A DNA stretch of 64,000 bases. Origin: an uncultured virus (IMG/VR IMGVR_UViG_3300044695_008744) (Duplodnaviria; Heunggongvirae; Uroviricota; Caudoviricetes). A program made the translations under genes and the position numbers. How positions within the stretch are numbered: position 1 is the first letter of the stretch; each line of letters opens with the position of its first letter. The stretch lies in the IMG/VR virus record IMGVR_UViG_3300044695_008744, one strand, 5' to 3'. The notes under the pieces were generated by a model, which did no database searches, was not told the origin of the DNA, and worked only from the letters and a program-made list of their open reading frames with translations. Shown here one piece after another: positions 12,601 to 26,652 of the stretch.

Positions 12601-14329
12601 ATCCGAATTTCAAATTTAATGTGTAATCCAGTGCTAATCCTTGCCCTTGACTGTAAGGATCAATTCCATTGCAAACTAAGCTAATTGGTTTATAGATTTC
12701 GAAAGCAGTGTCGGAGGGTAAATTATAATCGTTATATAAGGTTAATCTACCCTGATCAAAAATCAAAAACTCTTTACTTGAGACTATATGCACCGCTTCA
12801 TAAATGGATTTTTCTTCATATTCAGAAAAATTCAATGGTGGAGTGTCAGTGGTTCCATAAGGTTGTGTGAAATTTTTCAAGGTGTTCCTTGAAATTATTA
12901 AATTTTCGCCAGCAAAGTATTCATCGACATTATTGAAATTTACTCCAAAAAACAAATCAGCTATAAAATTATCTAAAGTGTTTAGATATAATGATTTCAA
13001 TTCATTTAATGCTAAAGAATAATTCTTTGCTGCTGGTAAATATTCAGCAAAAGCTATCCACAAATTTTCATCTGGAATTACTTTAACAAAAGCTGAAGGC
13101 ACAATTTGTGTATTGTAAACAATGCTGTAATCATTTTGTAAATTTATTTTTTTAGGATTTTTTTCAAAAATAAAAATATTAGCTGGAACATTTCTGTTAT
13201 ATAATTTTTCTAAACTTTTAATATTTAAAGAACTAGCAAAATTTGATTCAAAAAGATTTTTCAAATCATAGCTTGCATTTGCTGAAGTATTTTGTTTTGT
13301 ACCCGATGTAATAAAATCTCCATAAAAATACACATAATTTTGATTTGAACTTAATATATTATTGAAGTTAACATTTTCATAAGCAAAATATCTTGTTGGC
13401 TGGCTTTGTTCTGAAAATACTCCATCAATTAGAGTTTCATTTATTCTGTCTGGAGCCCATAAATATGGATCACTTTCAACAAAACACTGTGTTGTGAACC
13501 CGATAGAATATGGGGTAGTATTTGACCAAAAATTCTTTCTGCCTGAAATTGAAGTGATATTTGTTTGAATTGAAGATGTTGTTAAAATACCTAATTTATT
13601 TATGAAATTTTGAGTACCAACATATTTAATTGATGAGTTGGTGTTTGAATTTGTGGAAATAAAACTTGAATCATTATTTCCCCAATAAAAAGTTAGATTG
13701 TAATTAGATATTGAAGAATTAATATAGTTTAGTTTTATGAGTAAATTTGTTTGTGGCTGAGCATAAGACCATGCATAATCAAATCTTATCAAATTAGAAT
13801 TTACATACCCACTAGAAATATTAAAATTATCATTGCCATATACTGCAAAGTCTATTGGAGCATCAAAGAGATGAGAATTAAATTGATTTCCAGATAAATC
13901 AAAACTTGAATAAGGAATGGATATTACAGAAGTTTTATTTATACCCACTGCACTAAATGAGTAAATTTCTCCAGACAAAAAAGTACTGCTAAAGCCAAAA
14001 TTGTAATTTAAGATTGTGGTTGAAATATGTGTACATAAATTAAATGAAGGATAATTTTCAGTGTTTGTTAATCCTATTTTGACATTTTGCAGGCTTTGAA
14101 GCAAATAGTCTGTTTGGTTAGATTGTATCTCTGATTGATACGGTGCAAGAATAGAAGCCAAATCATAATTTTCTGTTACCGTGGATCCTATTATTTCCGA
14201 AGCTGATTCAAAAAAATGAGCACTTACACCAATATTTTTATTCATGTCACCAATTGTTTCATCCAACACTTGATAAGTGATTGCATTAGAGTGAACAATA
14301 TTTGTGAAGAATTTTTGTATCGTTGTCAT
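9605..14329 (-). CDS. large virion structural protein
   Basis: 1574 aa, N/S/T-rich beta-strand composition, one IKILNPGSNF-type repeat. Confidence 0.55.
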   Translation of the reverse strand: MTTIQKFFTNIVHSNAITYQVLDETIGDMNKNIGVSAHFFESASEIIGSTVTENYDLASILAPYQSEIQSNQTDYLLQSLQNVKIGLTNTENYPSFNLCTHISTTILNYNFGFSSTFLSGEIYSFSAVGINKTSVISIPYSSFDLSGNQFNSHLFDAPIDFAVYGNDNFNISSGYVNSNLIRFDYAWSYAQPQTNLLIKLNYINSSISNYNLTFYWGNNDSSFISTNSNTNSSIKYVGTQNFINKLGILTTSSIQTNITSISGRKNFWSNTTPYSIGFTTQCFVESDPYLWAPDRINETLIDGVFSEQSQPTRYFAYENVNFNNILSSNQNYVYFYGDFITSGTKQNTSANASYDLKNLFESNFASSLNIKSLEKLYNRNVPANIFIFEKNPKKINLQNDYSIVYNTQIVPSAFVKVIPDENLWIAFAEYLPAAKNYSLALNELKSLYLNTLDNFIADLFFGVNFNNVDEYFAGENLIISRNTLKNFTQPYGTTDTPPLNFSEYEEKSIYEAVHIVSSKEFLIFDQGRLTLYNDYNLPSDTAFEIYKPISLVCNGIDPYSQGQGLALDYTLNLKFGYNNQNYLNKILYLMASKYLISESDYNNRIFNNQDTIGYYYLANPDSTDYSDYSVSSINEFRLYGYSGLIPNLKDGSVVPILTKSFSPKDSTKYTYEEFIDYLRSQGITNSDDINEAIQDYLDAGNSFYTINLDKFSNNFNALTSISICAANYVVNQPKYWNEGFDEKFLEPAQIDDTGFTNLTANILSGIATAFVGSPPYTISNIPVGYNCRLKSVTVNSFGSSQIPGGYTAWFLPPDNQKSDEQPAQIEFSILSSGILDPSSIKILNPGSNFYFGFSTFLNVGFTSTGIGTSSASITLVMDNVSEFSATVNTSKIITSFTQTKPPAIGYNAGFKFNPRALVGLGYTSFADIDIKINNAPTIDSFLIAPLNLQPGDLENINNFSTPNTNLSNLNYTAGSQTYLLYEDEIFNSITVPYSFGNKQISFVTISCKLIELNGKNPSGDIQFKIYALEDNIKTEVASSDRISITEISRNSYSDLNIPIYFNFANTLVSLSQSVYYVSIKQNLTNCFLSIKGSFTGISTSDYSILSSDIYNDPNYFIIAGGISTNGYDLDIAKAPINLSNIFGSDLLISDTIGANINLRKNSEYEGANNLSLKISTTYNSETGIIFSNLVNVASLSSTFTGVAFTFNSTLYSGTIINSASLISANPLFINQAFASRSLSQYDGVLLGMSTLSQIGLSNTSVNFNFVFNKLFNQVSPDIYGAFNYTDKSQFGLAKPNRLRESDPVNVVDGYWSYKSDLVNQPLSIYPRAFLNNTSVIGTSLPVYQYLGYSHDIYVNIGYNSNGIYNQETITLNAYPKWKVTWMDRTTSNYKNFSIFNVIQQSYVDSINYLQGSANTIIGISTGVKSGIFEGTFQPSGNLASTVPVSITIGTSAGVQLYINNNSQPLIDTFSTISTGIIVSSSSLSVSERSLPVYFKVYYFSLSTSMIQVNWNVGAGNTLINYNSISSGITPNPVSLNSGAPIDNIVFFNVSKTLEDAESVNSGYPPGDSFVIRSS

Positions 14330-15360
14330 TACACTGCATTTACGTTAACATTATTTGGTCCAAATTGATCTACACTTATAATTTCCTTCGCCTTCAAGGT
14401 AAATTCTGCAGAATGAAGAAAAGCCGCGCTCATTCCATCGTTTGATGGTTTTATGTCGCCCACTTGTATATCTTGTAAAAATCTCATCAAATCTGCCTTA
14501 TTGGTTGAAATAGAATTTAAGTTGGTATTCCATTTTGAATTAGATGTAATTGTTGATGGCTTGATGCCAGACTCCCAATCAGAAATGAATGCTTGCACTG
14601 CTTGATATGCCACGCCTGCCCAATCATAGTAAGGTGGACTTCCTGAGGCGTGTGTTTCTAGCCAAAAATTGTTTATGTTTGTGATAATGTTATTAACATA
14701 ACTATTTAAAACTGTTGTCGCAGCACCTACATGTCCAGAGCCTCCAGAAATAGTTAATGTACCTGAAGAATATGGATTAGAAAAAGTGGTGGCTGAAATG
14801 CCAATGCCTGAAGACAATATTTCCGCAACATTAACATTGCCTGATATTCCTTTAGAAAGTCTTATGTAGGCGTTTGGATTACTAAAACCTGATCCTGACA
14901 CGCTGAAGATAAATCCTGTAGTTAAACCTGCTGGTAAGCTTGCGCTTGTGATACCAACATTTGTTATTACACCTGTGTCAATGTAGTGAATTGGGCTCAA
15001 AGGTAGTTTTCCGCAAAATGGACATAAATCACAAACCCACATACTTCTGTGATTTTTCAAAATATTATGGGCTACTCTGGCAGCTTCTAAAACCACTCTT
15101 TCAGAAGTTTCTTTATCATCATTTGAAGAATAAATTGTAACCCCGATTGTATATTCTATTTCTCTTAAACCAAAGCCAATATCTTTTAAATTACTTGAAG
15201 TGTTTCTTAGCACAACACCTAGAGGGGAAGGTAAAATTTGCCTGTCTCCAAAAAACCATTGCTCAATTACTCGATCATAAATTTCTGGATATCCTTGGGA
15301 ATTTTTAGGAAAATCAGTGTACAAAATTGCCTTTATTGTATCATAGATTTTTTCTACCAT
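14329..15360 (-). CDS. putative tail completion/terminator-like protein with insertion
   Basis: Directly downstream of the DUF1320-like gene; EYTIGVTIY and HSAEFTLKA flank a CDLCPFC-containing insert. Confidence 0.4.
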   Translation of the reverse strand: MVEKIYDTIKAILYTDFPKNSQGYPEIYDRVIEQWFFGDRQILPSPLGVVLRNTSSNLKDIGFGLREIEYTIGVTIYSSNDDKETSERVVLEAARVAHNILKNHRSMWVCDLCPFCGKLPLSPIHYIDTGVITNVGITSASLPAGLTTGFIFSVSGSGFSNPNAYIRLSKGISGNVNVAEILSSGIGISATTFSNPYSSGTLTISGGSGHVGAATTVLNSYVNNIITNINNFWLETHASGSPPYYDWAGVAYQAVQAFISDWESGIKPSTITSNSKWNTNLNSISTNKADLMRFLQDIQVGDIKPSNDGMSAAFLHSAEFTLKAKEIISVDQFGPNNVNVNAV

Positions 15361-15363
15361 TTA

Positions 15364-15855
15364 TTATGAACCACCCTTGCTTCTGCCACCCTCTGCAGGA
15401 TTTCTAGGTACTCCTTGAAGAGGTGATCTAACAAATCTACTCCCCCTTGTATTTCTGTTACCATAAATCCTTAATTCACCATTTTGCAACTTGTAAAGTT
15501 GCTCGTATGCCCATTTCACACGATCTTTTATTGCATCAGACATTTGCCTATCAGCGCCTTGTAATTTTTGTTCAAAAATTCTAGATGCAGCTAAAATGGC
15601 GACAATTTCCAAAATTGGCTTAGGATAATTTATTTCACCATCAAAATTTACTTTTTTCAAAGGAACATCGTATTGAGTAGCCAAAGAGCCATCAACTTCA
15701 TCAGAAGCTTGTTCAATAAAATAATCTAAATCAATATTAAATACAGATTCTGGGGTTGGATTCCTATAGCTAGGCGATGGATTGTCTCCTTCAACGACAA
15801 TGTTAGGTGGTAAGTATTTCTTTACGTCTTCTTTTGAACAATATAATCTAGCCAT
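15364..15855 (-). CDS. head-tail connector/neck protein, DUF1320 (Mu gp36-like)
   Basis: YCSKEDV...IEQASDEVDGSLATQYDVPL...ILAASRI...LYKLQNGE matches the family pattern. Confidence 0.7.
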   Translation of the reverse strand: MARLYCSKEDVKKYLPPNIVVEGDNPSPSYRNPTPESVFNIDLDYFIEQASDEVDGSLATQYDVPLKKVNFDGEINYPKPILEIVAILAASRIFEQKLQGADRQMSDAIKDRVKWAYEQLYKLQNGELRIYGNRNTRGSRFVRSPLQGVPRNPAEGGRSKGGS

Positions 15856-16522
15856 TTGGTTGCCCCTCTATTTTTTCTAAGTATTTTGGCACATAATCAG
15901 CGCCCTCATCTTCTCCAATTAAACCAAAACTATTTAAAGTTTTTCTGGATATTTCTGTATACACTGGGATATCTTCTAACTCAGATCCCGATCTTGCTGC
16001 TGATGAAATTACTCTTGGATAATCAATATCTAAATCTTTGAACGCTTTAGAATGAGCATTGTATATTTCAACAAAATCTGGTTCATAAGGTGTGCTTTGC
16101 CAATTTGATATTTCTCTGGCTAAGCTTTTTGATAAATCATACAATAAAACTTTACCTTGTTGTTTCTTGCATAATTGAATAGCTTGTTGTATTGGTAAGC
16201 CTGGTTTGATATTTTGTGTAATATTGTAAAATACAGCTTTGACACCATCAGAGCTCAAGTAATCTTGTCCTGGAATTACTTTAAGATCAATTCCAGATTG
16301 TTCAGCTTGCTTTTTTGCTATGTATCCAGGTTGCACTCCAAATCTGGACACAATTCCAATTACATCTAACCCCTTGACTATTGCCGAAGACAAAATAGAT
16401 TTAATTTTTGATTCGATCTCTGATTGGTTTTGCGCTTCCAGCTCTTCACCAAGATAGACACGAAGATCCATCCTCAAATTGTGTTTTCTTAAAGCTGTTT
16501 TTAAAAATACGGAATACCACAC
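15848..16522 (-). CDS. PHP-fold protein, metal-binding residues apparently degenerate
   Basis: AIVKGLDVIGI, LKVIPGQD, AIQLCKKQQG and DFVEIYNAH follow the PHP layout; DLHxH is replaced by DLRVY. Confidence 0.6.
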   Translation of the reverse strand: MWYSVFLKTALRKHNLRMDLRVYLGEELEAQNQSEIESKIKSILSSAIVKGLDVIGIVSRFGVQPGYIAKKQAEQSGIDLKVIPGQDYLSSDGVKAVFYNITQNIKPGLPIQQAIQLCKKQQGKVLLYDLSKSLAREISNWQSTPYEPDFVEIYNAHSKAFKDLDIDYPRVISSAARSGSELEDIPVYTEISRKTLNSFGLIGEDEGADYVPKYLEKIEGQPNG

Positions 16523-16556
16523 ACAATCTATTTAAAGAAAAATGACCTATTAGCCT

Positions 16557-17231
16557 TCAAATTCTTTTATTACCGCAGCCGCCACAGAAGTTATCAGTAG
16601 TTAAGTATTTGCTTCCGCATGAACGACAAAATGAGTCTTTTGCTGAAGGGGGGGCGGTGATGAGGGGGTTTTTCCAAGGCATTGCTATAGGATGACTAGA
16701 AGATGGTTGTCCTGGCTCGAATATATTTTCTGTTACTATATTTTCTCTTTTTTTATAAGGATTTATTTCAGGCTCAATTACTCTTTGGGGTAATCTATTT
16801 CCATTTTCATCAAATCTTAAAGCTAAATTAACCATTGCTGATCTGTAACCTAAATGTTGATTCAAATTTTTAATCACTTCTTCTTCTGATAGATCATCAA
16901 GCATATCTGTGCTCCAATCTGGAACTTCATCTAAATCAACTGTGTCTTCAGCGTCACATTCTAATGAAATATGTCCAATGAATTGATTTTCAGTTTCTTC
17001 AGTTTGTTCTGGCAATATCCCTAAAGAAATACCCAGCTTCTCTAGATTTTCGTTAAATAATGATGAAGAGTTAACTGAAACCCTACCAGGTCCTATTATA
17101 TTACCTGTAATTTTAGCCTTAGGTTCAATTGAACTATCGCTTGTACCAGTGATGCCACTTGATCCTTTTTTATATTCGCCTATCTTATCTTTAGAAAAAG
17201 AGATTCTTGTTTCTTTTGTATTGTCATTCAT
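16557..17231 (-). CDS. protein with C-terminal zinc ribbon
   Basis: FCRSCG...NFCGGCG at the C-terminus. Confidence 0.65.
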   Translation of the reverse strand: MNDNTKETRISFSKDKIGEYKKGSSGITGTSDSSIEPKAKITGNIIGPGRVSVNSSSLFNENLEKLGISLGILPEQTEETENQFIGHISLECDAEDTVDLDEVPDWSTDMLDDLSEEEVIKNLNQHLGYRSAMVNLALRFDENGNRLPQRVIEPEINPYKKRENIVTENIFEPGQPSSSHPIAMPWKNPLITAPPSAKDSFCRSCGSKYLTTDNFCGGCGNKRI

Positions 17232-17232
17232 A

Positions 17233-17565
17233 TTAAGATTGTGTAAATTGATAGCCCTTCAGTTCTAATTCTTGATTTGAATCATCCATCTGCTTTAATG
17301 TCGGCAAAAGAGTGTTCATTATTTCTAACTCACCCCACTCTGGTGGAACTGCAACTGTAAAAGTGACTTTATGAACTTTTTTTTCAGGTGTCTGAGTGGA
17401 TGGTGTTGCAAAATTCTTAATGTTTGGGTTGAGGTTTAAATTTTGTTCAGTTCCAGTATTTACAGAAGTAGATAGCTCTTGTGCTATTTTTATCAATTCC
17501 TCAGATAACAAAGGCTCAGTATTTCTGATCAAAGATGCAGCTTTAAATAATTTTTCAAAGTTCAT
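17233..17565 (-). CDS. hypothetical protein, possible head-associated protein
   Basis: 110 aa; N-terminal segment ends in EELIKIAQ. Confidence 0.6.
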   Translation of the reverse strand: MNFEKLFKAASLIRNTEPLLSEELIKIAQELSTSVNTGTEQNLNLNPNIKNFATPSTQTPEKKVHKVTFTVAVPPEWGELEIMNTLLPTLKQMDDSNQELELKGYQFTQS

Positions 17566-17791
17566 ATTACTATTTTACAAAAAACTTCCAAAAAACCTTA
17601 AAAAAAATGACCTTTACTGTGTAGGAAAAGTATATATAATTAATACTAATTAAAAACTAAATTAGAACTAAGGTTTTTTTTTAAATTTATGTATAATGTT
17701 AATGAGAATGCCGTCAATTCAAGGAAAAGGGCGTAAATATTCTCACACAATCTGCAAGGGTTTTAAATTTATATTTTAGAAAAAAATTAGT

Positions 17792-17992
17792 ATGAAGAGT
17801 GCTTACAAGAAAATTAAAAATATAATTGACGATACTTGTCACATATCTTTGAATGAAGATCATGGAGATTGTGATGATAAAATATCAAAATTTTTAATTG
17901 AAGAAGCAAAACTTCAGTGTATTATTAAAGTTTTAATTGAACACAATTATATTGATTCAAATCATAGAACTTTTCCTGAATACACATCATAA
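17792..17992 (+). CDS. small hypothetical protein
   Basis: 66 aa ORF ending 8 nt before the ribonuclease gene. Confidence 0.5.
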   Translation: MKSAYKKIKNIIDDTCHISLNEDHGDCDDKISKFLIEEAKLQCIIKVLIEHNYIDSNHRTFPEYTS

Positions 17993-18000
17993 GGAAAAAA

Positions 18001-18423
18001 ATGAATAAAAACATATCTACAAAAATTGTATCAGCTCTTTCGATCTTTGCTCTGGCAACCACTTCTTTTGCACAATCTACTTTCGGGAGACCTCACATTA
18101 ATTCAGTGACTGGTAGAGTTAATGTTTTACCAAATGTAAGAGTTATTGATTTTGGAAGACTCATTTATCAAGGAAGAATGGACGTAAATTCTACTATTGA
18201 TAGAATCAGATTGGGTAGAAAGCTAAATCATAAAAATGACGGATCATTTTTTTCAAATTTTCAACGAAGACTTCCAGCAAGCCCAGACACACAATACTAC
18301 AGAGAGTTTGTTCATCAAATGAATGGTTTTCCTTTTCCTGGACCACAAAGAGTGGTAATTGGCAAAAGAGGAGAAGTGTGGTATACAGGTGATCATTACA
18401 GTTCTTTTTTCAAAGTAAGATAA
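18001..18423 (+). CDS. secreted guanyl-specific ribonuclease (barnase/RNase Sa family)
   Basis: Sec signal peptide ending TTSFA; FSNFQRRLP, YYREF, GPQRVVIG, WYTGDHYSSF with catalytic E, R and H; SD AAGGA. Confidence 0.85.
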   Translation: MNKNISTKIVSALSIFALATTSFAQSTFGRPHINSVTGRVNVLPNVRVIDFGRLIYQGRMDVNSTIDRIRLGRKLNHKNDGSFFSNFQRRLPASPDTQYYREFVHQMNGFPFPGPQRVVIGKRGEVWYTGDHYSSFFKVR

Positions 18424-18442
18424 GATTGTGTATAATTAATAC

Positions 18443-19462
18443 ATGAGTAAGATTGAATCCGACAAAGAAAAAAAACAATCTATAAAACCTATTGCTAAAA
18501 AAACTGATTTTAATGGTGATAAAATAACACATTCTGAAACCGAAAAAACCAGAGGTGTTGTTGTATTTTTATCATCTGACTTAAGTGGTGCACCAGAAGT
18601 AATAGATGTTCACGACGGTACAGTAGATTTGGATGCTACCAACTCTCTAAAGAATGACACCGAATCAGAAAACTTGGTATTACAAAGCTTATATTTTGAT
18701 TCAATTTCGCCTGAAATCAATTGTAAACAACAAAAAATGTATCTAAAAGGCTCAGGTTTAAATTCAAAATTACCTGAGATTAAATGCAAAACAACACTCA
18801 GGGAGCGAATAGAAGATAAAAAAAACTCAATGCTGTCTAGAACTATTTTTTTGATAAATTTGTTCTTTTTGAAGAAAAAGTACACAAATTTCTTTACAAA
18901 TATTTATTCAGAAATAATACCAGAAGATGTTTTCCAAGCAAAGGTTTTGAATTTGACTAAGTTCAATCGCAATAGATTGATGAAAAAGTATGGTATCAGT
19001 GAAGATGAGCTCAATTTTATTGCTTTTGCAAGATTCTCGTACCCATTTATAACTAGAGGTGAAAAAGAATGGAGCAAAATCGAAAAAAATGCTGATGCGT
19101 TCATTGCAAGAAAATGGATAACAGAAGACATTAAAGGTAATTTCAAAATAAATGTTAGCAAAGTTTATACATTCAGGGAAAAAATTATTTTTCCTAATCA
19201 ATTTAAAGACATTGTTATCAAAAAAGCTTTTAATTGGAAAATCTTAAATAAGATTCTGAGAAAAGTTGAAAGAAGTGCAAAAACTCAAGTGCACGTTTAT
19301 ACTATTTCTCAAATTAGCAAACTTCCTTTTACCCAATTTGGAAATAGTAATATTGCCACTCATCCTCCTATTAGTAAAAATGATGAACAAATAAGTAGTT
19401 TGATCAAGAAAAAACCAATTGAAGCAATGAGTAGCATTAATAAAAAAAATTTTTTAAAATAA
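18443..19462 (+). CDS. hypothetical basic protein
   Basis: 339 aa Lys-rich ORF directly upstream of tRNA array 1; TATAAT just before the ATG. Confidence 0.6.
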   Translation: MSKIESDKEKKQSIKPIAKKTDFNGDKITHSETEKTRGVVVFLSSDLSGAPEVIDVHDGTVDLDATNSLKNDTESENLVLQSLYFDSISPEINCKQQKMYLKGSGLNSKLPEIKCKTTLRERIEDKKNSMLSRTIFLINLFFLKKKYTNFFTNIYSEIIPEDVFQAKVLNLTKFNRNRLMKKYGISEDELNFIAFARFSYPFITRGEKEWSKIEKNADAFIARKWITEDIKGNFKINVSKVYTFREKIIFPNQFKDIVIKKAFNWKILNKILRKVERSAKTQVHVYTISQISKLPFTQFGNSNIATHPPISKNDEQISSLIKKKPIEAMSSINKKNFLK

Positions 19463-19484
19463 AATAAAATAAGAAACTTTTTTA

Positions 19485-19513
19485 AAGGAAAAACCGTCTA
19501 AGATTGTGTAATA
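19485..19513 (+). promoter_or_regulatory. putative promoter of tRNA array 1 (AAGG-N21-AATA)
   Basis: Matches the motif recurring upstream of many genes in the window. Confidence 0.5.
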
Positions 19514-19529
19514 TAAAAAAGGAACTAAA

Positions 19530-19583
19530 ATGACAAATTCGCTACTCCATTCATATCCAGCCTACGCACCCTCATCGGGGTAG
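19530..19583 (+). CDS. attenuator leader peptide of tRNA array 1 (MTNSLLHSYPAYAPSSG)
   Basis: SD AAGGA 19519-19523, ATG 19530, TAG 19581-19583; codons CTA, CAT, TAT, TAC, CCA and GCA match the five downstream anticodons. Confidence 0.85.
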   Translation: MTNSLLHSYPAYAPSSG

Positions 19584-19612
19584 TGGCTCGTTGCGTATTT
19601 GACAAGCTACAG

Positions 19613-19646
19613 AACCCCGAAGGACTCAAATCTTTCGGGGTTTTTT
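19613..19646 (+). terminator. intrinsic terminator (attenuator) upstream of tRNA array 1
   Basis: AACCCCGAAGGA-ctcaaa-TCTTTCGGGGTT 12-bp stem followed by a T tract. Confidence 0.9.
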
Positions 19647-19652
19647 ATTTTT

Positions 19653-19664
19653 GAACATTGACAA
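19653..19664 (+). promoter_or_regulatory. boxA-like antitermination element
   Basis: GAACATTGACAA resembles rrn boxA; 11 nt before the first tRNA, same spacing as array 2. Confidence 0.55.
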
Positions 19665-19675
19665 TTTAATAAAAT

Positions 19676-19754
19676 CTATGCGTTGAGGAGTTTGGCTTAC
19701 CTCGCGTCCCTTGGGAGGACGAGTACGCAGGTTCAAATCCTGCCGCATAGACCA
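19676..19754 (+). tRNA. tRNA-Pro(TGG)
   Basis: Acceptor CTATGCG/CGCATAG, anticodon arm CGTCC-CT TGG GA-GGACG, GGTTCAAATCC, CCA end. Confidence 0.92.
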
Positions 19755-19758
19755 ATTT

Positions 19759-19843
19759 GGGGGCATCGCATAGTGGCAATTGCTGGAGACTGTAAATCTC
19801 CCCTCGCGAGAGTTCGTAGGTTCGAGTCCTTCTGCCCCCACCA
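19759..19843 (+). tRNA. tRNA-Tyr(GTA)
   Basis: Acceptor GGGGGCA/TGCCCCC, GGAGA-CT GTA AA-TCTCC, long variable arm, CCA end. Confidence 0.92.
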
Positions 19844-19850
19844 AAATTTT

Positions 19851-19930
19851 GCCGAAGTGGTGGAATGCATACACGCTAGTCTTAGAAACTAGTGCCTTAG
19901 GGCATGTGGGTTCAAATCCCACCTTCGGTA
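19851..19930 (+). tRNA. tRNA-Leu(TAG)
   Basis: Acceptor GCCGAAG/CTTCGGT, CTAGT-CT TAG AA-ACTAG, variable arm; followed by TCA rather than CCA. Confidence 0.9.
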
Positions 19931-19936
19931 TCAAAT

Positions 19937-20010
19937 AAGCAAGTAGCTCAATTGGTAGAGCCTTTTGGTTGTGACCCAGAAGCGTGTGAGTTCAAATCTC
20001 ACCTTGCTGA
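19937..20010 (+). tRNA. tRNA-His(GTG), atypical ends
   Basis: TAGCTCAATTGGTAGAGC D arm, TTTGG-TT GTG AC-CCAGA, GTGAG-TTCAAAT-CTCAC; 1:72 mismatch, no G-1/C73, no encoded CCA. Confidence 0.75.
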
Positions 20011-20019
20011 CTCAGTTTA

Positions 20020-20096
20020 GGGGCTGAAGCTTATTAGGGAAAGCGTCTGATTTGCAATCAGAAGTCTTGCGGGTTCGAAACCCGTCAGCTCCACCA
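20020..20096 (+). tRNA. tRNA-Ala(TGC)
   Basis: Acceptor GGGGCTG/CAGCTCC with G3:U70, TCTGA-TT TGC AA-TCAGA, CCA end. Confidence 0.92.
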
Positions 20097-20097
20097 A

Positions 20098-20415
20098 TTA
20101 CAAATCATAAAATCTCTTTGGAGTGTAAATATATTTCATAGGCTGAACACCTACCTCGTCAGGTTGAGTTGTAGGTTCTTCAGCTAATTCGCCTAATACC
20201 GCTGGTGGCTCAGGAATAGGGGGATTAATTTGTGCTGGTTCGTTAACAACATTATTTTGTTTACGATTATATTCTCTTGCCAATTCTTTACAAGTTTCGC
20301 AAGCTCTTTCATCAAATTGCCAGATTGTGTTTCCGCCAGGAAGTTGTTCAATGAAGCATCTACACCCTTCATGCACAGGAGGTAAGATTTGTTGTTGTGA
20401 ATATTTATACCACAC
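20098..20415 (-). CDS. small Cys/His protein with Mu gpF/SPP1 gp7-like PPxHxxCRC motif (GTG start MWYKYSQ; shorter than the ORF-track call)
   Basis: PPVHEGCRC and ACETC motifs; GTG at 20415 follows TAGG-N22-AATC; the longer start would run into the array 2 promoter/leader. Confidence 0.6.
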   Translation of the reverse strand: MWYKYSQQQILPPVHEGCRCFIEQLPGGNTIWQFDERACETCKELAREYNRKQNNVVNEPAQINPPIPEPPAVLGELAEEPTTQPDEVGVQPMKYIYTPKRFYDL

Positions 20416-20465
20416 AATCTGATTTTCAAGAAAAAAAACAAAAAAACCTAATTTTATAGAACAAA

Positions 20466-20493
20466 AAGGAGATTGTGTCGTATAATCATAATA
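20466..20493 (+). promoter_or_regulatory. putative promoter of tRNA array 2 (AAGG-N20-AATA, with TATAAT at 20481-20486)
   Basis: Recurrent motif plus a perfect sigma70-type -10 hexamer. Confidence 0.55.
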
Positions 20494-20504
20494 AGGAATT
20501 AACA

Positions 20505-20573
20505 ATGAAATTAAATTTGCAGGGCAGTATGGTGGGATGTTTTATTTGGTCAACCCAAGGGGGTAGTGGCTAG
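20505..20573 (+). CDS. attenuator leader peptide of tRNA array 2 (MKLNLQGSMVGCFIWSTQGGSG)
   Basis: SD AAGGA 20493-20497, ATG 20505, TAG 20571-20573; the run AGT ATG GTG GGA TGT TTT ATT TGG TCA plus CAG/CAA matches all ten canonical downstream tRNAs. Confidence 0.88.
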   Translation: MKLNLQGSMVGCFIWSTQGGSG

Positions 20574-20601
20574 AAACCTGCTGTTAGCAAAAATTTCAAC
20601 C

Positions 20602-20638
20602 AAAATCCCTGAAGGCAAAATCTTCAGGGATTTTTTTT
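20602..20638 (+). terminator. intrinsic terminator (attenuator) upstream of tRNA array 2
   Basis: AAAATCCCTGAAGG-caaaa-TCTTCAGGGATTTT stem followed by a T8 tract. Confidence 0.9.
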
Positions 20639-20640
20639 AT

Positions 20641-20652
20641 GTTCTTTGACAA
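20641..20652 (+). promoter_or_regulatory. boxA-like antitermination element
   Basis: GTTCTTTGACAA closely matches rrn boxA (GYTCTTTRAMAA); 11 nt before the first tRNA. Confidence 0.65.
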
Positions 20653-20663
20653 TTAAATAGTGA

Positions 20664-20739
20664 GCGATATTGGTGTTAATGGTTAGCATCACTGCCTTCC
20701 AAGCAGAGGGTGCCAGTTCGAATCTGGCATATCGCTCCA
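20664..20739 (+). tRNA. tRNA-Gly(TCC)
   Basis: Acceptor GCGATAT/ATATCGC, loop CT TCC AA, U73, CCA end. Confidence 0.92.
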
Positions 20740-20747
20740 GATTATGT

Positions 20748-20823
20748 GGCTTTCAGGTGTAACTGGTGTGCACGAAGTGCTGAAAACGCTTAGGACATAG
20801 TTCAATTCTATGGGGAGCCACCA
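20748..20823 (+). tRNA. tRNA-Phe(GAA)
   Basis: Acceptor GGCTTTC/GGGAGCC, AAGTG-CT GAA AA-CGCTT, CCA end. Confidence 0.88.
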
Positions 20824-20832
20824 CAATTTTGA

Positions 20833-20919
20833 GGAAGGTAATGCTGAATGGTTTTGGCGAATGTTTGCTAAACATTTCGGGCTGAAAGGTCTCTGGTTCA
20901 ATTCCAGTGCCTTCCTCCA
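20833..20919 (+). tRNA. tRNA-Ser(GCT)
   Basis: Acceptor GGAAGGT/GCCTTCC, AATGT-TT GCT AA-ACATT, long variable arm, CCA end. Confidence 0.88.
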
Positions 20920-20924
20920 TACAA

Positions 20925-21012
20925 GGGGAATTCGCATAGTGGTCTAGTGCGGCTGTCTTGAAAACAGTAGGGCTGAAAGGTTCCGTGGGTTCGAATCCTA
21001 CATTCCCCTCCA
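20925..21012 (+). tRNA. tRNA-Ser(TGA)
   Basis: Acceptor GGGGAAT/ATTCCCC, GCTGT-CT TGA AA-ACAGT, long variable arm, CCA end. Confidence 0.92.
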
Positions 21013-21020
21013 AGTTTTGT

Positions 21021-21094
21021 GTTGTCTCTAGCTCAGTTGGTAGAGCATTCCATCGCGAGGAAAGGCGAAGGTTCAATTCCTTCGGGCAACACCA
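21021..21094 (+). tRNA. aberrant tRNA-like gene, identity undetermined (nominal anticodon CGC, Thr-like body)
   Basis: Intact D arm, T arm and ACCA end, but only a 4-bp anticodon stem TTCC-ATCGCGA-GGAA and one extra base before U8; no G3:U70. Confidence 0.6.
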
Positions 21095-21100
21095 TTTTAT

Positions 21101-21187
21101 TGAGGAATAGTGTAATTGGTAACACGCTAGGTTTTGGCCCTAGAGACAGAAATGCTCGTCCACGTTCGAATCGTGGTTCCTCAGCCA
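21101..21187 (+). tRNA. tRNA-Gln(TTG) with unusually long variable region
   Basis: Acceptor TGAGGAA/TTCCTCA, G73, CTAGG-TT TTG GC-CCTAG, 16-nt variable region, CCA end. Confidence 0.85.
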
Positions 21188-21190
21188 AGC

Positions 21191-21265
21191 ATCCGAGTAG
21201 CTCAATGGTAGAGCCCAATCTTGATAAGGTTGAGGTTTTTGGTTCAAGCCCAAACTCGGATACCA
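21191..21265 (+). tRNA. tRNA-Ile(GAT)
   Basis: Acceptor ATCCGAG/CTCGGAT, CAATC-TT GAT AA-GGTTG, CCA end. Confidence 0.9.
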
Positions 21266-21266
21266 C

Positions 21267-21341
21267 ATCCGCGTAGCTCAACGGTAGAGCAAAATCCTTA
21301 CAAGATTGAGGTTTTTGGTTCGAATCCAAACGTGGATACCA
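21267..21341 (+). tRNA. tRNA-Val(TAC)
   Basis: Acceptor ATCCGCG/CGTGGAT, loop CT TAC AA, CCA end. Confidence 0.9.
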
Positions 21342-21346
21342 ATTTC

Positions 21347-21420
21347 GGCAAATTAGCTCAATGGCAGAGCGGAGGTATCATAAGCCTTTGATAAAAGTTC
21401 GATTCTTTTATTTGCCCCCA
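21347..21420 (+). tRNA. tRNA-Met(CAT), elongator-type (Ile2 not excluded)
   Basis: Acceptor GGCAAAT/ATTTGCC fully paired (not initiator-like), GAGGT-AT CAT AA-GCCTT, CCA end. Confidence 0.8.
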
Positions 21421-21423
21421 TAA

Positions 21424-21497
21424 GCACGATTAGCTAAATGGTAAAGCAAGGGTCTGCAAAACCTTTATCGCTGGTTCGATTCCAGCATTGTGCTCCA
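21424..21497 (+). tRNA. tRNA-Cys(GCA)
   Basis: Acceptor GCACGAT/ATTGTGC, U73, AGGGT-CT GCA AA-ACCTT, CCA end. Confidence 0.92.
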
Positions 21498-21500
21498 TAC

Positions 21501-21575
21501 ACCGCTGAGAGTAGGTTGTTTCTAAAGAGTCTCCAAAACTTTTTTACCTGGGTTCAAATCCCAGCGGCGGTGCCA
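21501..21575 (+). tRNA. tRNA-Trp(CCA)
   Basis: Acceptor ACCGCTG/CGGCGGT, G73, AGAGT-CT CCA AA-ACTTT, atypical D arm, CCA end. Confidence 0.85.
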
Positions 21576-21578
21576 ATC

Positions 21579-21887
21579 TCACGACACAATCTTAATAATA
21601 TGCGGTTCTGTTTCTGAGATATTGAATATACCATCACCCAATTGATATTTTTTACCTAAATCATCAATGAAATCCTGAAATTGCGTTTCAGCATTTTCAA
21701 TCACTTCTTGGTTTTGTGCAAATTCTGCCTGTAGGGATTGCATTTGCTTTTCAGTTTTTCTCATCATATCAAATAAATCTGATCTTTTTCCTTTCAGATT
21801 AAGAATACCAGCTCTCATTTGGGTATAGTTGTTGAATTCTTCTTTGGAAAGTGCTTTTTCAGATTGTGTGTCGCTTTTGAACTTCAT
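21579..21887 (-). CDS. coiled-coil hypothetical protein
   Basis: 102 aa heptad-rich ORF downstream of the amidase, convergent on array 2. Confidence 0.6.
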   Translation of the reverse strand: MKFKSDTQSEKALSKEEFNNYTQMRAGILNLKGKRSDLFDMMRKTEKQMQSLQAEFAQNQEVIENAETQFQDFIDDLGKKYQLGDGIFNISETEPHIIKIVS

Positions 21888-21905
21888 AATATTATTTTAC
21901 AAGAT

Positions 21906-22754
21906 TTATCTTGTTCTTATTAAAACAAAAGTGGCTCCAGTTTTATCACAAACATCTCTCAAAAATATCCAAGCGCTGCCATTTTCATCTATCTCGGCTA
22001 CAGGCACAGAATAACCTTTCAAGCCATTCATCCACACAATGTTTTTGCCCATTTTTGTCAAAGCATAATTTTTGGGTTGTAATTTATTAATAAATTCTCT
22101 AGCAGGAACAATAGTTCTACTATTTACCACTCTTGTTTTACCATAAATGAAAACATTATCTCCCAATGTTATTTCAAAAACAGGATTAGTCCAAGGCGCG
22201 GCACCTTCCCCACTAAAAATTAAATATTGTTTATTTACTGCATCTACAAATTTTGTTTTGTCTACAAGTTTACCAGGGCATGTTTTATTTGTCAAAGGGT
22301 CATCTCTATGGAATTTAAGTGTAGGTGGTTGCACCTTTAGATAATCGCAAAGAAACCCACACAATTCTTGAGTGATTTCAAAAATTTCTTTTGCTCTATG
22401 TGAAGTGAAATCTGTAACAGTGTCGTAGTCACCTAGCATTTCTATACCCCAAGCATTAGCATTATAGCTTTTGGCATGTACGCCAGGTTTGTTTAATGCT
22501 TGAAAAAGAATAATTCCTTTATCATCTACAAAAAAATGTGGTGCACCGTTCCAATTCATAACATGCTCATAATAATATTTCAAATTGATGAGATGTTGAT
22601 CTGTGAAGCCATTTGGTCTTTGTGAAAGATTAGGTGAGGCTGTGTGATGTACTACAACAAATTGCGGTTTAAATGAAGTGAAATTCAAAGTTGCTAAATA
22701 AGTTTTTAGTTCTGCGATCGTTACTCTTTTGCCAACATAAGGAATAGTGCCCAT
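21906..22754 (-). CDS. N-acetylmuramoyl-L-alanine amidase (Amidase_2 endolysin) with C-terminal copper-amine-oxidase-N/stalk-like domain
   Basis: VVHHTA, HFFV, GVHAKSYN, GIEMLGDY, FHRD, KTCPG; C-terminal RTIVPAREF...GSAWIFLRDV. Confidence 0.85.
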   Translation of the reverse strand: MGTIPYVGKRVTIAELKTYLATLNFTSFKPQFVVVHHTASPNLSQRPNGFTDQHLINLKYYYEHVMNWNGAPHFFVDDKGIILFQALNKPGVHAKSYNANAWGIEMLGDYDTVTDFTSHRAKEIFEITQELCGFLCDYLKVQPPTLKFHRDDPLTNKTCPGKLVDKTKFVDAVNKQYLIFSGEGAAPWTNPVFEITLGDNVFIYGKTRVVNSRTIVPAREFINKLQPKNYALTKMGKNIVWMNGLKGYSVPVAEIDENGSAWIFLRDVCDKTGATFVLIRTR

Positions 22755-22809
22755 AACTTTATTCTTCTAAATAAAAATTAATTTTCACTTTTTCTTTTAT
22801 AACTTTAAT

Positions 22810-23355
22810 ATGACTTTGAATTGCAATATTCCACATTTTGAATGTTTTGTTAAAAAAGAATTTCTTACCAACTTTACACAATCTGATGAGTTGATAAAAG
22901 CCAAAGCTTTTGCAGTGTCGAGCACAAGAGGTCAAGTGTTACAGTTTCATGTTTTGACAGAGCATGGAGCAATGTTTTCTAAACTTCCAGTGCATGCTTT
23001 AGTTCTTAAAAAAGATTATGAAAAAATGGAATTAAATCAGCTTGTCACTTATGATACTTTTAGTTTTCATTTGTCAAACATTACTTATGATTATTTAAAA
23101 TATTTGACATGCACATACTTTGCTGGTGATAAACGCGAAAAATATGGGGCTACATATTTTACAACAGTTGATTTTTATGATTCCGAGTATGCAGATCACC
23201 CTGGTGTCACTAAATGTTGTCATATTTTGTTTTTAGATAATGGCAATATTGCGGCAGCACCAAACAATAGAATCCTATGGAACGACACAGGATTAAAGTC
23301 AGATGTAACGAAAATTGATTATAAGCCTTTAAATAAAATCTTTACAGTGGAATGA
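22810..23355 (+). CDS. conserved phage protein of unknown function
   Basis: LNCNIP...FVKKEFL...FHVLTEHGAMFSKLPVHAL...HILFLDNGNIAAAPNNRILW resembles a widespread uncharacterised aquatic-phage family. Confidence 0.6.
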   Translation: MTLNCNIPHFECFVKKEFLTNFTQSDELIKAKAFAVSSTRGQVLQFHVLTEHGAMFSKLPVHALVLKKDYEKMELNQLVTYDTFSFHLSNITYDYLKYLTCTYFAGDKREKYGATYFTTVDFYDSEYADHPGVTKCCHILFLDNGNIAAAPNNRILWNDTGLKSDVTKIDYKPLNKIFTVE

Positions 23356-24137
23356 AAATATTTTTTGATCATATTCTTTTTCAGCAAACTAATTACAATT
23401 TTAATCATACACTTGTATCTGCAATTTTTGAAGAAAATGAATATAATTATGCATTAGAAAATGGATGGTTTCCAGATAATTTTTGGATAAATTCATCTAC
23501 AAGTCATTCAATAAGATGTGAAAAATTGGGCGAATTTGTTTGGTCTCCAATAAGATCTTCTAGAATTAAAGTGGAGGATTTTGTACTTGACAAAAAAGAT
23601 AGAAGATTACTTAAAAATAATATTGATGTAGAAAAGCAAATTGTTTCGCAAATAGATACTGTAGAAGTGTTTGAAGTTTATAAAAAATATATTTGCGCAA
23701 AAGGATTCGATGATTTTAAGGATTCATTAGAAGATTTCAAACATAGTTTTTGCCGAGAAGATTTTCATTTTTTACTTTACAAACAAAACACAATCTTAAT
23801 AGGCTTTTGTATTGTGCAACCATTTGGAAATAATCTAGTGTCTTATCAATTTTGTTGGGATTATGAAAATCCAAAATTAAGTTTGGGAAAATTTTCACAA
23901 ATTCAAGAAATAGAATATGCTAAATCACTCAACATGAATTATGTTTACATAGGATGCATTGCTGAAAAAGAAGGAATGTATAAAAGTAATTTTTCTGGAT
24001 TTGAATATTTTAATGGAAGAGAATGGAGAAAGAAAGATAACTTAATCGAAAAATGGCTTTTGAATGATTCAGATTGTGTGAGTATTGACAGATTGTGTGA
24101 GTTAGAAAAGGAATACATCAAAGACTACCAGGTTTAA
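23352..24137 (+). CDS. aminoacyl-tRNA-protein transferase, Ate1/Bpt family (GNAT fold)
   Basis: ALENGW, RSSRI, VYKKYI, FCWDYENPKLSLGKFSQIQEIEYAK...YVYIG...MYKSNF match the ATE_N/ATE_C pattern. Confidence 0.8.
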   Translation: MKIFFDHILFQQTNYNFNHTLVSAIFEENEYNYALENGWFPDNFWINSSTSHSIRCEKLGEFVWSPIRSSRIKVEDFVLDKKDRRLLKNNIDVEKQIVSQIDTVEVFEVYKKYICAKGFDDFKDSLEDFKHSFCREDFHFLLYKQNTILIGFCIVQPFGNNLVSYQFCWDYENPKLSLGKFSQIQEIEYAKSLNMNYVYIGCIAEKEGMYKSNFSGFEYFNGREWRKKDNLIEKWLLNDSDCVSIDRLCELEKEYIKDYQV

Positions 24138-24158
24138 CCCATTTTAATTTAAAAATGA

Positions 24159-24548
24159 TTATTGAATTTCAGGCTCAAAATAAGAAATCATCGTGATAGC
24201 TTCTGATTTATTAGTGAACATAGGAAAAAATCTCTCTTCAGTTCTGATCACATAATTCACATTATCATCGGGAATAATTTCCGCTTTTACTAAACAATCT
24301 AAAATAGCCTTATTAATGTTATCAATGTCTGATTTTCTCGTGAAACCCCTTCCTTGCACTACTTTAATTTCTATTTCTATTGGAAAGCCATCAGGCTTAT
24401 CTAGACCATTTTTTAACAGCGGAATATTTAGTTCAAGCCAATTTCTATAATGTTTTGATTTAACCATCCCATATTTTTTAGATGGTGTATACATTTTGTT
24501 TTTAGAAATAGGTGGACCAATCGTGATTGAAGTGCGTTTTATAATCAT
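24159..24548 (-). CDS. rusA: RusA-family Holliday junction resolvase
   Basis: PPISKN, SDIDNINKAILDCLVKAEIIPDDN catalytic motif. Confidence 0.85.
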   Translation of the reverse strand: MIIKRTSITIGPPISKNKMYTPSKKYGMVKSKHYRNWLELNIPLLKNGLDKPDGFPIEIEIKVVQGRGFTRKSDIDNINKAILDCLVKAEIIPDDNVNYVIRTEERFFPMFTNKSEAITMISYFEPEIQ

Positions 24549-24565
24549 AAATTATACAGGCAAAA

Positions 24566-26614
24566 TTAAGAAGCTCCACCTTTCCATATTTGTCTGAACA
24601 TTCTTGATCTTCCACCAGGGAAAGCGTATTCTGGCACTGTGACGGTACCCATAACAGGTCGCACAGCAATTGGAAGTTTTTTGAGAAGCTCGTTGAATTC
24701 TTCTTGATACATTTTTGCCGTGTCTTTAATACTCGCCACTGCATCAAATGATCCAGACTCAGGATCCATTACTAACAATCTTCGCTCTCTTTGATTAAGC
24801 CCCACAACAAGTTGCCGTAGCAAATAATATGTGGCACCAGATACCAATGTTGCATCATAATAAAAAGGCACTGTTGCAACATTGTATATTTTATTTAAAC
24901 CTGGTTGAGCATTAATAGCTTGAAGAGCTAAATACAATGCGTTGTTTATTTGAGTGTTGGTAAACATTCTTACATAATAAGTGACAAGCAGCGTATCATA
25001 TTCTTGAATACTAACTGGGTCGCCATTAATATCAAAGAAATAAAATTTCCCTTCATTGGTAAATCTATAAAATAATCCATTTGGATAGTTATTTGTTAGT
25101 GTTGAGGGATTGTCAAATGGATCACTCAAAGATTGGTCTAAGCTATTATAAAATCCAGTGTAAGGGCTTAATACAAACATACTGGATCTTTGACCACCAT
25201 TTGTTGAACATGTAATTCTTACTTGTGGTGCAGGATCTGTAACCATATCGCCATATGCTAAAGTGGCAGAAGTTCGCTGGAAACCAAATAAAGGCTCTTC
25301 ATCGTAAACTGGTACTCTTAACAATGCGTTGAGTTCAAACAAAACGGAAGATTTCAAAAGCAATTCATCACCAATCATTGGTTGAATTGATAATGTAGAT
25401 GTAAAATCATAGTTAGTTTGTTTTATGTAATAAGTGTCTGCTGGATTACCAGAGTTATCTATAAACTCATTCAAAGGCGCAGCTACACTTGCAACAAAAT
25501 CTAGAGCAGTAGGAATATAAGTGAGCCTGTTGTTGGCATCTCCTACAATAATATTATAATCTTGATCCTCAACCACAGAATTAGGCGTGTCAAACTGTTG
25601 ATAATTCACCCCTGTAGACCCAACAGTGTTTATAATTTGCCCCTCTGTAGATGTAGAACTAGAAACAGATTCAACCGAATATCCAACGCCATTAAAACCA
25701 TAAGTAGTGGTATTAACAGTGACAGATGTTGACGCCACAACATTCACCGTGTTATTGTAAGAATCGCAAGCAACTAAAATACCAAAGTGATTGTATATTA
25801 ATGCTGACCAAACTTGATCTGATGGAGTCAATGCAAAATTCAAAGACCACTGTGAGGTTGTATTTCCAAGATTGATGTTACCATCATAAATCCATTCCGA
25901 AATATTATTATCATAATCTGCAACAGCTACTTTTGAACCATCATAATTAGATATTTTTTTAACAGCGGCATTTAGTCCATTTGAAGAATTAATTATCACA
26001 CCAGAAGAACCAGCATCTGCCACCACTGTGTTTCCGCTCATACTCACATTAGTTGCAAAAACTGAACCACTAAAGCCGCAATATAATCTATCTTTATAAA
26101 AACTAAAATCCAGATCTTGATAAAATGATGTGCTTGCACCAACAAACACAGAATATTCAATAGTGTTGTGTTTAGTGAATGTAGAGTTCGCAAAAGTGAA
26201 CACTGTCAAGTTGGACGCAAACCCAACCATTATCACTTCGCTTGTTCCAATTGTTCCAACTTTCAAATTAACAGGAGTGGCTGATCCTAAGTAACTATTG
26301 CTTGCAAAAGCTTGCGTGGTGAATGTATTGCCCACCTTTTTATAAGCAATTAACCCTGATTGATTCAAGCAATAAATGTATGTTGTGCCTGATCCTAAAG
26401 CAATTGGCAAACCCAGATTTTGTGTAGAGTTGTTAGTGTATGTAGAAACAATGAGAGGAAATCTATAGTCATTGTTAGCTACACCTTTGAAAATTAAAGA
26501 TTGGGTAGATGGGAAGTTTGTGTCAGGATCCCAAGACACATATACTCCTGGGTTACCATGACTATTATTGTATTGTCCTATTAAACCTTGTTGAAATGGC
26601 ACTGCACTAGGCAT
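24566..26614 (-). CDS. virion protein: beta-propeller/NHL-like N-terminal part, head-tail adaptor-like helical C-terminus
   Basis: FDTPNSV...IIVGDANNR repeat; C-terminal FTNTQINNALYLALQAINAQP...LVSGATYYLL. Confidence 0.5.
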   Translation of the reverse strand: MPSAVPFQQGLIGQYNNSHGNPGVYVSWDPDTNFPSTQSLIFKGVANNDYRFPLIVSTYTNNSTQNLGLPIALGSGTTYIYCLNQSGLIAYKKVGNTFTTQAFASNSYLGSATPVNLKVGTIGTSEVIMVGFASNLTVFTFANSTFTKHNTIEYSVFVGASTSFYQDLDFSFYKDRLYCGFSGSVFATNVSMSGNTVVADAGSSGVIINSSNGLNAAVKKISNYDGSKVAVADYDNNISEWIYDGNINLGNTTSQWSLNFALTPSDQVWSALIYNHFGILVACDSYNNTVNVVASTSVTVNTTTYGFNGVGYSVESVSSSTSTEGQIINTVGSTGVNYQQFDTPNSVVEDQDYNIIVGDANNRLTYIPTALDFVASVAAPLNEFIDNSGNPADTYYIKQTNYDFTSTLSIQPMIGDELLLKSSVLFELNALLRVPVYDEEPLFGFQRTSATLAYGDMVTDPAPQVRITCSTNGGQRSSMFVLSPYTGFYNSLDQSLSDPFDNPSTLTNNYPNGLFYRFTNEGKFYFFDINGDPVSIQEYDTLLVTYYVRMFTNTQINNALYLALQAINAQPGLNKIYNVATVPFYYDATLVSGATYYLLRQLVVGLNQRERRLLVMDPESGSFDAVASIKDTAKMYQEEFNELLKKLPIAVRPVMGTVTVPEYAFPGGRSRMFRQIWKGGAS

Positions 26615-26652
26615 AATATATTTTTATGGAAAAAACACATTATGCCTTTAAT

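Follow-up and report, generated by a model that had tools for sequence, protein, structure and literature searches.

The virus record IMGVR_UViG_3300044695_008744 (Duplodnaviria; Heunggongvirae; Uroviricota; Caudoviricetes) is a single uncultured 347 kb jumbo phage sequence of 347,392 bases, and the 64,000-nucleotide stretch of it analyzed here (the window; bases 151736-215735) carries two elements that each precede a tRNA gene array. In both, the order is a -10-like motif, AGGA, a short open reading frame (ORF), an intrinsic terminator, a boxA-like motif, and the array (window positions below are on the + strand), and the leader stop codon lies 30 and 32 nt from the terminator, respectively. 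These elements are probably leader-peptide transcription attenuators of the trp/thr/ilv type, which by modeling gate the phage tRNA arrays through a strict succession of 1:2, 2:3, and 3:4 hairpins; if a variant in which read-through is the default state and timing decides is counted with the strict scheme, ribosome-controlled attenuation in some form is likely.

In the proposed scheme host RNA polymerase would transcribe the short leader and a ribosome, presumably coupled to it in the host cell, would translate it. A 12-mer present in both leaders (GGGGTAGTGGCT) would be the common switch strand, pairing first with upstream sequence in a protector (1:2) that is probably also a pause hairpin. 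A ribosome held on sensor codons just upstream of the 12-mer would melt the protector, and the 12-mer would then pair with the terminator 5′ arm; with this antiterminator (2:3) formed, transcription should continue, Nus factors should load at the boxA-like motif, and the tRNAs would be produced. If the sensor codons are read fast, the ribosome would cover the 12-mer, the terminator (3:4) would form, and array expression would stay low. The tRNAs so produced would be those of the slow codons, which would close a negative feedback loop.

Leader codons and tRNA arrays

Leader ORF 1 (MTNSLLHSYPAYAPSSG; bp 19530-19583) has 17 codons, with Leu, His, Tyr, Pro, and Ala as its sensor codons, and array 1 (bp 19676-20096) consists of tRNA genes for Pro(TGG), Tyr(GTA), Leu(TAG), His(GTG), and Ala(TGC). 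All 5 of 5 array amino acids are represented, by 9 of 16 leader codons (P=1.2e-3, whole ORF, phage codon usage). The 22-codon leader ORF 2 (MKLNLQGSMVGCFIWSTQGGSG; bp 20505-20573) has sensor codons for Gln, Gly, Ser, Met, Val, Cys, Phe, Ile, and Trp, and array 2 (bp 20664-21575) begins with Gly(TCC), Phe(GAA), Ser(GCT), Ser(TGA), and an odd tRNA with a CGC anticodon, and continues with Gln(TTG), Ile(GAT), Val(TAC), Met(CAT), Cys(GCA), and Trp(CCA); here the match is 9 of 9 amino acids and 16 of 21 codons (P=3.8e-5 by phage codon usage, with the CGC tRNA left out). When the arrays are swapped as a control, the match is lost (P=0.86 and 0.97). Every array amino acid has at least one codon at or before the boundary from which a ribosome masks the switch strand (see below). 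Codons and tRNAs also change together, in part, among the relatives: relative L001 has gained a tRNA-Leu(GAG) and its leader has two CTC codons, L001 has neither an Ile codon in leader 2 nor a called Ile tRNA, and L043 has neither a Val codon nor a Val tRNA.

Predicted folds and ribosome position

The first-pass annotation had proposed, from pairings drawn by hand, that each leader can form mutually exclusive protector, antiterminator, and terminator hairpins. The letters of every hairpin arm it named are present at the positions given, and folding essentially recovers the three structures in both leaders. In leader 1 the predicted protector (bp 19559-19588) has a folding energy of -12.3 kcal/mol, the antiterminator (bp 19570-19623) -23.4 kcal/mol (z -3.7), and the terminator with its U tract (bp 19611-19652) -20.0 kcal/mol, and the numbers of 200 shuffles that fold equally well are 9, 1, and 0, respectively. 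The corresponding leader 2 values are -9.5 kcal/mol (12/200) for the protector (bp 20547-20572), -13.5 kcal/mol (z -0.4; 62/200) for the antiterminator (bp 20559-20610), and -17.9 kcal/mol (0/200) for the terminator and U tract (bp 20602-20640). Both terminators are clearly distinct from shuffled sequence, as is the antiterminator of leader 1, and the protectors are borderline. The leader 2 antiterminator had been suspected of being the weaker one, and it is so by the two energies above; its hairpin is found, but the preferred register is one base off that drawn by hand, and the energy includes an inner helix (the helices originally proposed give only -8.5 kcal/mol by themselves).

The effect of ribosome position was modeled on nascent RNA that ends at the terminator 5′ arm, with 13 nt masked from the first base of the A-site codon. 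In leader 1 the terminator arm remains paired until the A site passes Tyr12, and the cost of freeing it then falls from 11-13 to <2 kcal/mol; in leader 2 the arm remains paired until the A site passes Trp15, and the cost falls from 7 to 0.4 kcal/mol. A mask of 10 nt moves the boundary one codon later. In 17 of 17 distinct leaders the modeled arm becomes free as soon as the ribosome has passed the last unique sensor codon, and the same model applied to Escherichia coli thrL, trpL, and ilvL (three of four controls) puts the boundary at the last sensor codon or up to about three codons beyond it. Sequestration of the terminator arm by upstream sequence exceeds all 200 of 200 shuffles in leader 1 and 186 of 200 in leader 2, and in L001 it exceeds 200 of 200 and 199 of 200, respectively. 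When the 47 terminator-like hairpins of the genome are ordered by sequestration, the leader terminators come first (13.0 kcal/mol) and second (8.7 kcal/mol), and the third has 8.4 kcal/mol. No evidence is drawn from a greedy co-transcriptional model (barrier cut-off, 7 kcal/mol), since its results were uneven even for the E. coli controls.

These profiles change parts of the original proposal. It had placed the terminating ribosome at the TAG stop codon, but masking of the switch already starts past codon 12-13 in leader 1 and 15-16 in leader 2, four to seven codons before TAG. It had also held that a ribosome stalled earlier masks only the protector arm; this applies only to stalls from about His7/Pro10 to Tyr12 in leader 1 and Cys12/Phe13 to Trp15 in leader 2, and a ribosome stalled at Leu5-Leu6 or Gln6-Val10 does not open the protector. 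For such early stalls, refolding of the protector into the antiterminator has to cross an estimated barrier of 8.7 kcal/mol in leader 1 and of about 13 kcal/mol in leader 2 (Gly7-Val10). In these models the early codons could be sensed by refolding, pausing, or cumulative delay. The trp-type 1:2/2:3/3:4 logic as a whole retains computational support for its mutually exclusive hairpins and its switch by ribosome position, and is amended as to the TAG position, the stall window, and the stability of the protector.

This last point bears on a variant that is ribosome-controlled but not strictly trp-type, in which the protector only provides a pause or sets the timing and the RNA, in leader 1 at least, folds by default into the antiterminator; termination would need a timely ribosome run over the 12-mer, and cumulative slowing or failed initiation would give read-through. 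The protector state of leader 1 lies about 10 kcal/mol above the antiterminator state, so that this protector can act only kinetically, across its 8.7 kcal/mol barrier, and at equilibrium the terminator arm of the naked leader 1 is sequestered with probability 1.00. The variant would also account for sensor codons that lie upstream of the window in which a stall melts the protector. On the other hand, all 17 leaders retain the protector, with a switch protection of 5.7-12.9 kcal/mol (in L001 by means of a shifted register), and in leader 2 it is nearly isoenergetic with the antiterminator and separated from it by a barrier near 13 kcal/mol. We regard the timing variant as unlikely, and continue to prefer the strict scheme.

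The shared 12-mer

The two copies of the 12-mer lie at bp 19577-19588 and 20560-20571 as exact repeats, and they are the only matches in the window at one mismatch or fewer; the chance expectation is 0.02, and none of 100 shuffles contains two matches. The whole 347 kb genome has two exact copies, plus one copy with one mismatch elsewhere. As had been noted at first pass, the copies are read in different frames (G-GGG-TAG-TGG-CT in leader 1 and GG-GGT-AGT-GGC-T(AG) in leader 2). Copy 1 is unchanged in 7 of 7 distinct leader-1 sequences, and copy 2 is GGGTARTGGCT in 10 of 10 leader-2 sequences. The variable leader 2 base (G or A) is unpaired in both folds, whereas the same base in leader 1 is paired and invariant.

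From its position in two frames the 12-mer had been taken to be conserved at the RNA level. However, leaders 1 and 2 can be aligned across the 12-mer, the terminator, and the boxA-like motif; they are homologous beyond the 12-mer and therefore share cassette ancestry, so the identity alone is no proof of constraint. Part of the identity is thus common descent. What stands of the argument is that the two copies have different partners with which they still pair, that the ORF frames differ, and that the one variable base is unpaired; as sequence observations these indicate constraint on the RNA. The 12-mer is clade-specific, and the leaders of a distant relative (G015, below) are of unrelated sequence.

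A near-invariant 12-mer identical across two frames might instead be a site at which a phage or host protein, or an antisense RNA, flips the terminator at some stage of infection or upon prophage induction, with the leader ORFs secondary. Such control would fit a record that is classified as a provirus and has genes for two sigma-70-type factors. This explanation is improbable, as it leaves unaccounted for the array-specific codon match, the in-frame nature of the indels in leader 2, and the existence in G015 of matched leaders that have no 12-mer.

Relatives and conservation

A viral scan found one relative with both leaders, and a metagenome scan returned 96 stretches. Among 73 distinct pattern contexts (72 of them from the metagenome scan or the first viral match), 16 have a U tract, and a tRNA gene is called right behind it in 15 of these 16; the other 57 contexts lack both a U tract and any called tRNA gene within 400 nt and were discarded as chance matches. 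The alignment set, including the window, has 7 distinct leader-1 and 10 distinct leader-2 sequences. The reading frame and stop of the leader ORFs are maintained throughout (7 + 10 distinct sequences): the length and stop of leader ORF 1 are constant in 7 of 7, and the indels of leader ORF 2 among its 10 sequences are in frame. Every one of the 17 distinct leaders has AGGA before its ATG, which was itself a selection criterion.

In the 7 leader-1 sequences 97.0% of antiterminator cells and 96.1% of protector cells are paired (none of 11 protector pairs is changed on both sides), and in the 10 leader-2 sequences the values are 92.8% for the antiterminator and 100 of 100 cells for the protector. 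Both hairpins are retained, partly in shifted registers, in the most diverged relative, with 11 of 72 and 16 of 81 positions changed; random mutants with an equal number of changes keep both hairpins in only 2 of 300 cases for each leader. At the divergence of the closer relatives, 21 of 300 and 16 of 300 random mutants keep both. The predicted structures thus hold, and in these models are conserved as far as close relatives can show.

A number of observations weigh against attenuation by the strict scheme. The relatives are close and not independent (column identity is 91% for leader 1 and 92% for leader 2), and two-sided covariation is present in 0 of 57 pairs counted among these close relatives over four structure counts. 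In the window the leader 2 antiterminator alone is not above chance by the shuffle count given above, and the leader 2 sequestration of 8.7 kcal/mol is equalled by 14 of 200 shuffles. The folding model that succeeds on three E. coli controls misses the fourth, hisL. If the whole terminator is present, the terminator always wins at equilibrium, which is expected for a kinetic switch and is the reason that RNA ending at the terminator 5′ arm was folded instead; the barrier from antiterminator to terminator is merely 3-6.5 kcal/mol. The failure of stalls at Leu5-Leu6 or Gln6-Val10 to melt the protector belongs here as well. Finally, the codon match has exceptions: L001 has a tRNA-Val and no Val codon, L043 retains a Trp codon though the anticodon of the homologous tRNA is TCG, and 5 of the 7 leader-1 sequences have an Arg codon for which array 1 has no tRNA.

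The missing covariation and the weak leader 2 antiterminator of the window are also what one would expect if these were fixed, leaky terminators that damp tRNA transcription, the 12-mer being a relic of cassette duplication and the pairings incidental in G/C-rich patches; the homology of the two leaders over terminator and boxA-like motif agrees with this. But the shuffle results (leader 1 above 200 of 200, L001 leader 2 above 199 of 200), the 2 of 300 in the neutral-mutation control, and the codon match all argue against this, and we consider fixed terminators quite improbable.

A distant relative with such units is G015, a phage of 478,840 bases with 62 tRNA matches, which shares 48% identity in a head-tail adaptor-like protein. 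It has three leader-plus-terminator units, sequence-unrelated to the window leaders, that match the amino acid sets read off their downstream arrays with P=0.003, 0.036, and 0.0005. One of the three (the Asn/His/Tyr unit) has a sharp switch profile, one a moderate profile, and one none. Two further candidate leaders precede its Gln and Lys arrays, with no terminator called. In all, at most five array-matched short ORFs are seen in G015 (L123, L124, L125, L127, L128), one of which has five Gln codons before the Gln array.

Elsewhere, tRNAs lie within 10 kb in only 2 of 22 loci with adaptor homologs, and G011 and G013, with 5 and 9 tRNA matches, have no convincing leader. The strict leader pattern has no match in 185,579 prokaryote genomes, two looser viral scans gave only the known relative plus three matches without tRNAs, and searches with two flanking proteins gave no useful relatives.

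Comparison with known attenuators and tRNA arrays

The E. coli trpL leader (Rfam RF00513; PMC4615214) also has a short leader ORF, a first hairpin, and mutually exclusive antiterminator and terminator, and its profile in the folding model is comparable. In the trp system, as PMC4615214 describes it, the ribosome masks about 10 nt downstream and the effective stall window is narrow. The two differ in that trpL governs biosynthetic enzymes and senses one amino acid by tandem codons, whereas the output of the phage units is tRNA and they sample five or nine amino acids once or twice each. Closer in this respect are thrL and ilvL (ilvGMEDA), which like the phage leaders sense several amino acids and have a Gly-rich tail after the last sensor codon, where sequestration is then lost; their distance from stop to terminator is 24 nt, compared to 30 and 32 in the phage. 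Unlike the phage units, they use long runs of two or three amino acids, have a protein-coding output, and reside on the host chromosome. The phage elements would work like thrL or ilvL and lie outside any Rfam leader family: the His, Trp, Thr, Leu, and Phe leader families have no match at gathering score (the best is His_leader, with 26.9 bits compared to a threshold of 49; in the relative it has 30.3 and 27.9 bits, also under 49). No T-box riboswitch family is among the Rfam matches to E=5 in bp 14000-27000. In E. coli pheST, leader-peptide attenuation (pheM) adjusts one component of translation to the amount of charged tRNA, although the output is a synthetase and not a tRNA.

Like the phage arrays, the trn operon of Anabaena PCC 7120 is a spare tRNA array that is off and conditionally induced, in the account of PMC10272220; there it is under the repressor TrcR, and the phage units have a leader peptide and terminator. 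Host defenses can deplete tRNAs, and phage tRNAs can restore infection (PMC11555353, PMC10264068). The T5-like phage example described in these two papers uses a strong promoter, in contrast to the predicted attenuators here, and the stem "attenuat" does not occur in the main text of either. By analogy, tRNA-depletion defenses are a likely reason for the phage arrays. The literature searched, which included few subscription journals and no supplements, yielded no description of an attenuator of tRNA genes. What is new in the phage units is that the output is tRNA genes, that the setting is viral, and that so many amino acids would be sensed.

It is a long-standing question why phages have tRNA genes. 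If these arrays are switched on when their own codons are slow, they would respond to tRNA shortage and not just offset codon bias. Leader-peptide attenuation would then extend from amino acid operons to tRNA genes and to a virus, with one leader sampling nine amino acids, and such leaders would be compact sensors for tRNA-cutting defense systems. A more tentative suggestion, with slightly less than even support in our judgment, is that the phage has a modular sensor of tRNA depletion, made by duplicating one switch core and rewiring it to two codon sets, and that this sensor provides counter-defense feedback. An array would then be transcribed when host immunity or infection destroys its tRNAs, and the leader codons would list the tRNAs under attack.

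Promoters, boxA-like motifs, and tRNA genes

The candidate -10 element of leader 1 is TAATAT after TG (bp 19509-19514), followed by a Shine-Dalgarno-like AGGAA (bp 19520-19524). This -10 candidate is not picked up by a consensus promoter scan, and similar motifs, TGTATAAT/CGTATAAT, directly precede the leaderless tRNA genes of the genome. Leader 2 has TATAAT as its candidate -10 element (bp 20481-20486) and AAGGA as its Shine-Dalgarno-like sequence (bp 20493-20497). The two -10 assignments are read from the letters alone, and the translation of both leaders is surmised.

The boxA-like motif after terminator 2 (bp 20640-20655) has 13 of 16 bases identical to a stretch of the E. coli rrnB leader that we take to be boxA. 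That after terminator 1 (bp 19654-19667) is a weaker match, but GAACATTGACAATT in it is invariant in 7 of 7 sequences. A boxA function is presumed for both. BoxA protects noncoding RNA from Rho, according to PMC4807359. In five candidate host genomes, none of eight boxA-like matches is near an RNA gene. In three relatives (L001, L025, and L067) a conserved, structured insert of about 85 nt lies between the boxA-like motif and tRNA-Pro; it is absent from the window and matches no Rfam family at cut-off.

Several array 2 genes are unusual. The Ser(GCT) tRNA (bp 20833-20919) was read off its anticodon loop; ARAGORN in default mode missed it and its Rfam match is weak. The tRNA body with the CGC anticodon (bp 21021-21094) lacks a G3-U70 pair, and the same body has TGC in L043 and L067 and TAC in L028; it is possibly a decoy or a drifting copy. 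The bodies of tRNA-Ile(GAT) and tRNA-Val(TAC) (bp 21191-21341) are almost identical, and L043 has the same body with TAT; their sequences suggest duplication and an anticodon switch. The tRNA-Trp(CCA) gene (bp 21501-21575) has an atypical D arm, and the anticodon of its L043 homolog (4409-4483) is TCG. The relatives L130 (minus strand, ~3588 and ~4803) and L026 have tRNA genes with short insertions in anticodon loops, called by ARAGORN as introns of 12 and 24 nt; one of the tRNAs that bear them is Gly-like and the other is of unclear identity.

Altogether 23 tRNA genes are called in the record. The other eight (Met, Asp, Asn, Thr, Lys, Arg, Met, and Glu) are without a comparable leader; four of their five blocks are immediately preceded by a TATAAT motif, and the remaining one by an intron-containing tRNA. 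A group I intron-like sequence (L133:192-379; G000:C1 ~13690-13880; Rfam RF00028, 38.3 bits with a cut-off of 50, E 6.8e-7) sits in an apparent tRNA gene that ARAGORN does not call, presumably a tRNA-Leu from its resemblance to that tRNA.

Phage genome and host

The genome has a G+C content of 33.6%. No RNA polymerase beta match is found in the 347 kb phage genome and there are two sigma-70 region 2 matches; therefore, transcription is probably by host RNA polymerase. The sequencing runs that share most with the phage are labeled aquatic metagenome, and runs of the same sample or study are lake water; no RNA data set is listed among those that contain the stretch. A pattern-limited search with the phage Hsp70, in which 80 loci were kept, has named Armatimonadota lineages in 20 of its first 21 rows, with 58-62% identity; these sequence matches give a hint of the host and do not amount to an assignment.

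Genes for translation initiation factor 3, Hsp70, and a Clp protease are present in the phage (L131, L132, and L134; G000:C1 2047-2559, 333717-335582, and 324774-325349). Within the window, a 140-amino acid protein with a Pfam Ribonuclease domain (PF00545, E 8.5e-9) is encoded at bp 18001-18423, 1.1 kb upstream of leader 1, and an Arginine-tRNA-protein transferase C-terminal domain (PF04377, E 8.4e-14) is encoded at bp 23352-24137, near the tRNA arrays.

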